64,000 nt of DNA, from NCBI RefSeq assembly GCF_003334385.1, contig NZ_QOWN01000010.1, one strand, 5' to 3'. Below are positions 6,883 through 7,050 of the stretch, in pieces; positions within the stretch are counted from its first letter, which is position 1; each line of letters begins with the position of its first letter. The notes under the pieces are model-generated. The model was not told the origin of the DNA, did not search any database, and saw only the letters and a program-made list of their open reading frames with translations. The DNA comes from Escherichia coli. GTDB taxonomy: Bacteria > Pseudomonadota > Gammaproteobacteria > Enterobacterales > Enterobacteriaceae. A program made the position numbers and the translations under genes.

Positions 6883-7050
6883 ATGAAGAGACAAAAACGA
6901 GATCGCCTGGAACGGGCACATCAACGTGGTTATCAGGCCGGCATCGCCGGACGCTCAAAAGAAATGTGTCCCTATCAGACGCTGAATCAAAGGTCACAAT
7001 GGCTGGGAGGCTGGCGAGAAGCCATGGCGGACAGGGTAGTAATGGCCTGA
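6883..7050 (+). CDS. rmf: Ribosome modulation factor (55 aa)
   Basis: Direct translation gives MKRQKRDRLERAHQRGYQAGIAGRSKEMCPYQTLNQRSQWLGGWREAMADRVVMA; below the 60-aa ORF-track cutoff; the track ORF 6867..7064 is a different frame. Confidence 0.93.
   Translation: MKRQKRDRLERAHQRGYQAGIAGRSKEMCPYQTLNQRSQWLGGWREAMADRVVMA

Follow-up and report, generated by a model that had tools for sequence, protein, structure and literature searches.

Small genes under-represented by a length-filtered ORF list in 64 kb of the Escherichia coli chromosome

The 64-kb stretch of Escherichia coli DNA analysed here (the window) almost certainly carries four known genes of fewer than 60 codons, rmf, appX, gnsA and ymdF, together with ymcF, which has a non-canonical start; none of these is properly displayed by a length-filtered six-frame ORF list, and neither of two long spacers named in an earlier note, wrbA-ymdF (58100..58471) and serT-hyaA (22881..23306), holds additional conserved protein-coding ORFs. 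The ORF list at issue, a track of ATG, GTG and TTG frames with a 60-aa limit, loses rmf, appX and gnsA over the 64 kb, draws ymdF and ymcE too long, and has no way of representing ymcF. At two loci the ORFs on display are decoys, out of frame at rmf and antisense at appX.

The earlier note had held that four real small proteins, those of rmf, appX, gnsA and ymdF, are under-represented in the track, and annotation, protein families, structures and profiling confirmed that these genes fall under the 60-aa limit or are distorted by it. The positions it gave are exact, with all four genes on the + strand and agreeing base for base with MG1655 b0953, b4592, b4517 and b4518 and with the PGAP coding sequences of strain SCU-104. 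Its account of the omissions was accurate for rmf and appX, which are absent, and for ymdF, which is over-extended, but gnsA (57 aa) is likewise absent and is not visible in a GTG-initiated frame as had been thought. The four-gene list itself, although real in every member, was incomplete, as a fifth annotated small gene, ymcF, had been missed. The features on which the analysis turns are as follows.

6883..7050, + strand: rmf, ribosome modulation factor; 55 aa, ATG start; the same as b0953 and the PGAP rmf coding sequence
7068..7092, unstranded: bidirectional intrinsic terminator common to rmf (+) and convergent fabA (-); 11-bp stem, 7 of its pairs being G-C; T-runs on each strand
22714..22770, - strand: 18-aa ORF, an artefact and not a gene; apparent RBS and ATG in the serT terminator hairpin (22740..22795)
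31613..31705, + strand: appX (cbdX), single-helix accessory subunit of cytochrome bd-II; 30 aa, ATG start; the same as b4592 and the PGAP cbdX coding sequence
42075..42263, + strand: ymcF, 62-aa CxxC...CxxC zinc-ribbon-like small protein; ATT start; the same as b4723 and PGAP "cold shock small protein YmcF"
42238..42468, + strand: ymcE, 76 aa; the same as b0991; shares 26 nt with the 3' end of ymcF and 11 nt with the start of gnsA
42458..42631, + strand: gnsA, 57 aa, GTG start; last gene of cspG-ymcF-ymcE-gnsA; the same as b4517
58472..58645, + strand: ymdF, hydrophilic, glycine-rich protein; two KGG repeats; 57 aa, ATG start; the same as b4518; divergent from wrbA

The window and its short reading frames

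Genome alignment placed the window on ordinary E. coli chromosome, collinear with MG1655 NC_000913.3 1,008,833-1,073,609 at 99.97% identity. Mismatches to MG1655 numbered 18 over the 62.4 kb compared, with none inside rmf, appX, gnsA or ymdF. Absent from the window, at about 40937..40945 between gfcA and cspH, was the insertion sequence IS1D, which appears as a clean 777-bp gap against MG1655, where the extra DNA consists of 768 bp plus a 9-bp target duplication. The missing IS1D and the small number of single-nucleotide differences identify the window strain as a close non-K-12 relative of MG1655. Strain SCU-104 and several other non-K-12 strains are identical to the window over the 24.9 kb compared; SCU-104 is collinear with the window, also lacks IS1D, and has locus coordinates equal to those of the window. 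A 2-kb probe around rmf found matches in 5,426 of 5,426 complete E. coli genomes, mostly at identities of at least 99%.

Re-calling ORFs down to 10 aa and scoring their ribosome-binding sites (RBS), as the earlier note had proposed, did return the four genes among the ORFs, but they were swamped. The six-frame listing contained 1,193 ORFs of 10-59 aa in the window, 43 of them 55-59 aa long, for four real genes, and with ORFs this numerous the mere existence of a short ORF is uninformative, within what chance provides. RBS scores, calculated as pairing with the 16S rRNA tail for every start-resolved ORF of 10-80 aa (3,255 candidates), ranged from -6.1 to -10.2 kcal/mol for the real genes, the weakest of these being rmf at -6.1. 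Scores of -6 kcal/mol or stronger were found for 189 of the 3,255 candidates; since these are about as strong as rmf, RBS scoring alone has no discriminating power. The gene status of rmf, appX, gnsA and ymdF rests instead on homology, structures and profiling, and not on the ORFs.

Other features of the window were also recorded. The start of yccS (12898..15060, - strand) differs between annotations, with 717 aa in curated MG1655 (end 15051) and 720 aa in SCU-104 PGAP (end 15060). A 135-aa ORF (10580..10987, + strand) runs antisense inside ompA, where a 200-aa antisense gene, "pop", has been claimed in EHEC; transcription and translation of the claimed gene are both reported to be absent in MG1655 (PMC7103648). 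Rfam gave a gathering-level match to the REP-derived naRNA4 family between torD and cbpM (52801..52879, - strand).

Annotated small genes

The rmf product matches NCBIfam NF011162 over profile positions 1-47 of 47 with 92.1 bits (equivalog cut-off 40), and its start is preceded, 9 nt upstream, by a GAGGG RBS at 6869-6873. Residues 1-55 match the RMF chains of ribosome structures 6H4N, 6H58, 9IOT and 4V8G (E 2.7e-34), of which 6H4N, 6H58 and 9IOT are structures of hibernating ribosomes. Initiation-site profiling from an MG1655 reanalysis, as listed in rows of Table S4 of Fesenko et al. (PMC11188072), records 129 reads with retapamulin and 27 with Onc112 for rmf, and a dN/dS of 0.10. The protein is no different from RMF of E. 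coli (b0953), with the same full 55 aa and the same locus between pqiC and the convergent fabA. From the structures and the literature, RMF would be expected to bind the 30S subunit at the anti-Shine-Dalgarno/mRNA-exit region, and identity with the characterised protein suggests that it would promote dimerisation of 70S ribosomes into hibernating 100S ribosomes in stationary phase. The sole item shown by the 60-aa track at this locus is a 65-aa ORF at 6867..7064 (+ strand), which lies out of frame over rmf, is annotated in neither MG1655 nor SCU-104, and was rejected as a decoy.

Also absent from the track was appX. Its start follows the appB stop at a distance of 12 nt, and that stop codon is spanned by a GGAG site. 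Translation of appX is probably coupled to that of appB. AppX matches NCBIfam NF011333 (CbdX) over positions 1-30 of 30 with 80.8 bits (cut-off 57), and residues 1-30 match chain C of 7OSE and chain X of 7OY2, both of which are cytochrome bd-II structures; that AppX lies physically within the oxidase complex is the result of the 7OSE and 7OY2 depositors. From these matches, the 30-aa product would be expected to form a single helix and to serve as a subunit of the AppCB oxidase (cytochrome bd-II). It does not differ from the AppX/CbdX of cytochrome bd-II (b4592), having the same full 30 aa and lying directly after appB as in MG1655, whereas its match to the paralogue CydX of cytochrome bd-I is weak (18.9 bits, under the 31.6-bit cut-off). 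Initiation-site reads for appX were 44 with retapamulin and 30 with Onc112, with a dN/dS of 0.04 (PMC11188072, listed Table S4 rows). What the 60-aa track shows at appX is a decoy, a 90-aa antisense ORF at 31476..31748.

The appX orthologue in Salmonella is a 29-aa gene of family PF08173 (YbgT_YccB), likewise 12 nt after appB. The Salmonella hyaABCDEF-appCB-appX block is intact (an 8-kb unit; 10001..18360 of locus L083) and adjoins pth/ychF, not serT/yccA. The hya-app unit, small gene included, differs in chromosomal position between E. coli and Salmonella.

Four small genes, cspG (70 aa), ymcF (62 aa), ymcE (76 aa) and gnsA (57 aa), form a tight run. The ymcF gene is the worst served by the track: because it starts with ATT, 10 nt after the cspG stop, it cannot be represented there, and its full frame is invisible to callers restricted to ATG, GTG and TTG, which can display only a fragment. 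Pfam PF23641 matches the product over positions 1-62 of 62 (E 1.7e-49), and the match takes in the N-terminal CxxC, which lies upstream of any canonical start codon in ymcF. Homologues numbered 103, mostly of 62 aa, with an invariant core made up of an 11-residue stretch and, further on, KCIFCK. The orthologue starts with ATT in Salmonella as well, and with ATG at the same aligned codon in Klebsiella. YmcF of the window has the same 62 aa, the same ATT start and the same 10-nt distance from cspG as the known protein (b4723; PF23641).

The adjoining ymcE has no recognisable RBS (16S-tail pairing +1.9 kcal/mol), and a TTG at 42205 serves as its start in the track, lengthening it to 87 aa; its product matches NCBIfam NF007379 with 187 bits (cut-off 163). 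The Rfam model of the cspA thermoregulator has a gathering-level match at 41696..42118 (+ strand), over the leader and coding sequence of cspG.

The last gene of the run, gnsA, has AGAGG 6 nt upstream of its GTG. The product matches Pfam PF08178 (GnsA/GnsB) over positions 1-54 of 54 (E 8.4e-36), and its sequence matches that in crystal structures 4XO1 and 4XO2. The full 57 aa and the GTG start overlapping ymcE are the same as in b4517, with no difference. Two readings of GnsA are found in the literature, the "GnsAB_toxin" of the Pfam label and an older one as an "unsaturated fatty acid regulator". The Pfam name implies a GnsA toxin that would be neutralised by the upstream YmcE; the adjacency of the two genes and their overlap were verified here. 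Overexpression of gnsA increases the unsaturated 16:1 and 18:1 fatty acids (bioRxiv 10.1101/2024.03.27.586906). Initiation-site reads at the GTG were 3508 with retapamulin and 376 with Onc112, and dN/dS was 0.15 (PMC11188072, rows listed from Table S4).

The fourth gene of the earlier list, ymdF, is nested in a 67-aa ORF beginning at 58442. Pfam KGG (PF10685) matches YmdF twice, at residues 10-30 (E 7.5e-9) and 32-52 (E 4.3e-9), and a search of the PDB returned no solved structure matching it. YmdF has the same 57 aa, the two KGG repeats and the same orientation divergent from wrbA as b4518 (PF10685), with no difference; its relatives include the paralogue YciG and Pseudomonas PA2146. Conservation was followed in a WrbA-anchored scan with one genome per species, which covered 80 Enterobacteriaceae loci. 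In 75 of these 80 loci, drawn from many genera, wrbA has a ymdF-like ORF in divergent orientation, with 82-100% amino-acid identity. Divergence at codon positions 1, 2 and 3 of ymdF was 0.033, 0.041 and 0.396 among 61 aligned species.

It is extremely improbable that ymdF is really the 67-aa ORF from ATG 58442, with the longer ORF of the track correct and the trimming of its start wrong. The ATGATG at 58442-58447 does sit inside a block conserved across genera, but neither of the upstream ATGs, at 58442 and 58445, has an RBS (+1.2 kcal/mol at 58442), as against a score of -10.2 kcal/mol for the GGAGG at 58461-58465, which precedes the ATG at 58472 by 6 nt. The 67-aa extension is intact in just 5 of 61 species, every one of the 75 tblastn alignments of YmdF begins at residue 1 of the 57-aa form, and codon periodicity sets in at 58472. 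A promoter function may instead account for part of the upstream block, as the conserved TATGAT at 58441-58446 may be the ymdF -10 element.

Read from 58472, the ymdF product is predicted to be a disordered 57-aa KGG-repeat stress protein. In Salmonella, YmdF is sigma-S-dependent (RpoS regulon) and its peptides have been detected by mass spectrometry (PMC5437024). Deletion of ymdF in E. coli causes defects in biofilm and tolerance, and the gene cross-complements Pseudomonas PA2146 (PMC9262955). Among the Table S4 rows listed from PMC11188072 there was none for ymdF, for which low expression in exponential phase is a possible cause. Downstream of ymdF, a gathering-level Rfam match to the REP-derived family ES036 was found at 58766..58808 (- strand).

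Intergenic regions and candidate reading frames

The earlier note had left room for further small ORFs in the two named spacers, 58100..58471 and 22881..23306, a suggestion that drew no support from conservation, RBS strength or published footprints. That these spacers, or other intergenic regions, conceal missed functional small-protein genes is very unlikely. Small proteins of E. coli are still being discovered, and the wrbA-ymdF spacer is unusually well kept in about 60 species, both in its length (351-447 nt) and in its short blocks. Alignment of 61 species resolved the spacer into conserved blocks of 12-22 nt between variable, indel-rich stretches, but no ORF of at least 10 aa within it was intact in more than 6 of the 61 species, compared with 41 of 61 for the ymdF control, in which the failures reflect variation in C-terminal length. 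ORFs of 1-9 codons in the spacer showed no conserved start together with an RBS. Nor did the spacer show codon periodicity, with values of 0.38, 0.42 and 0.44 at the three positions. Mild periodicity at 58340..58399 (0.30, 0.375, 0.51) fits no candidate frame and was judged a chance product of block conservation. RBS scores in the two spacers were no stronger than -5.7 kcal/mol, short of the range of the real genes.

Conserved in the wrbA-ymdF spacer are two perfect palindromes, CATAAG-N5-CTTATG at 58279-58295 and ACTAAGCTTAGT at 58377-58388, and a further block, TCTATGCAATATGATGTCTAT, just upstream of the ymdF RBS. These blocks are probably regulator sites and a promoter, both putative. Another reading, which we consider very unlikely, would go beyond ordinary divergent promoters and place in the spacer a leader or regulatory RNA of ymdF not described before, or a peptide of fewer than 10 codons. 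An Rfam E-value search of 58050..58950 had no hit within the spacer, its matches being confined to REP-derived families downstream of ymdF; this, the lack of codon periodicity and the presence of sequence-invariant palindromes resembling protein binding sites lead us to favour plain transcription-factor sites over a leader RNA or tiny peptide.

For the hya spacer the comparator was a single genus, Salmonella, given the narrow enterobacterial distribution of hya found in a search for HyaA homologues. The approximately 220 nt nearest hyaA align with Salmonella, with indels of 1 and 8 nt, and the serT-proximal half has no homologous comparator. Salmonella preserves none of the ORFs of the spacer: the start codon of a 16-aa ATG candidate is missing there, and frameshifts disrupt the + strand candidates. 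The conserved blocks of the two named spacers look regulatory, and the spacers hold no further conserved protein-coding ORFs, although ORFs tied to a particular condition or lineage, or of fewer than 10 codons, may be present in them.

Published footprints were also weighed, and for intergenic regions other than the two named spacers the published table was the comparison made. Several intergenic ORFs do carry footprints, for example with 8330 reads within the leader of ompA and with 1264 beyond serT (PMC11188072, listed Table S4 rows). The intergenic ORFs listed there for the range of the window, however, have footprint rows only, are classed as "Intergenic" and not as the conserved "Entero67K", and mostly have dN/dS of at least 0.5. 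For the two named spacers together, the listed rows include two with footprints, of 20 and 5 reads, and none with initiation sites. Intergenic ATG ORFs with high RBS scores at 12155..12205 (- strand), 41671..41748 and 41678..41758 (- strand) were not among the footprint-supported ORFs listed in the same table. PGAP annotation of SCU-104 and the curated annotation of MG1655 likewise hold nothing beyond known genes.

The best candidate outside the known genes was the 18-aa ORF at 22714..22770, between serT and yccA, which had one of the strongest intergenic RBS scores and tied for the best with an ATG start (-7.9 kcal/mol). It is highly unlikely that this is a translated upstream ORF regulating yccA. 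The ATG, the apparent RBS and the 1264 footprint reads, which cover 63% of the ORF at a dN/dS of 0.58 (PMC11188072, listed Table S4 rows), would fit such a role, but in the intrinsic terminator of serT the apparent RBS, AAGGGG, forms the 5' arm, and the ATG falls in the loop and 3' arm. This terminator consists of AAGGGGTTAGC, the loop TAAAT, GCTAACCCCTT and then a U-tract, with a fold of -21.6 kcal/mol (z -5.0), and the first seven codons of the ORF are its 3' arm and U-tract. Among the listed Table S4 rows the peptide has a single one, with no retapamulin or Onc112 initiation row (PMC11188072), and, with a strongly expressed tRNA and a stable hairpin close by, its reads are likely a contaminant of the footprint libraries.

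The hairpin artefact at serT has a counterpart at pqiC, where a TTG ORF at 6682..6786 was rejected as its apparent RBS is borrowed from the stem of the pqiC terminator. As these are two of the highest-scoring intergenic candidates, and each owes its apparent RBS to a terminator stem resembling a Shine-Dalgarno sequence, G-rich terminator arms are a systematic source of false positives for RBS scoring.

Implications for small-gene annotation

Nothing new emerged from the spacers, and rmf, appX, gnsA, ymdF and ymcF are all annotated already and mostly well characterised. The serT case illustrates that RBS scoring and footprints can both mislead beside a tRNA. Homology, codon periodicity across genera and initiation-site profiling are what tell the real small genes from noise.
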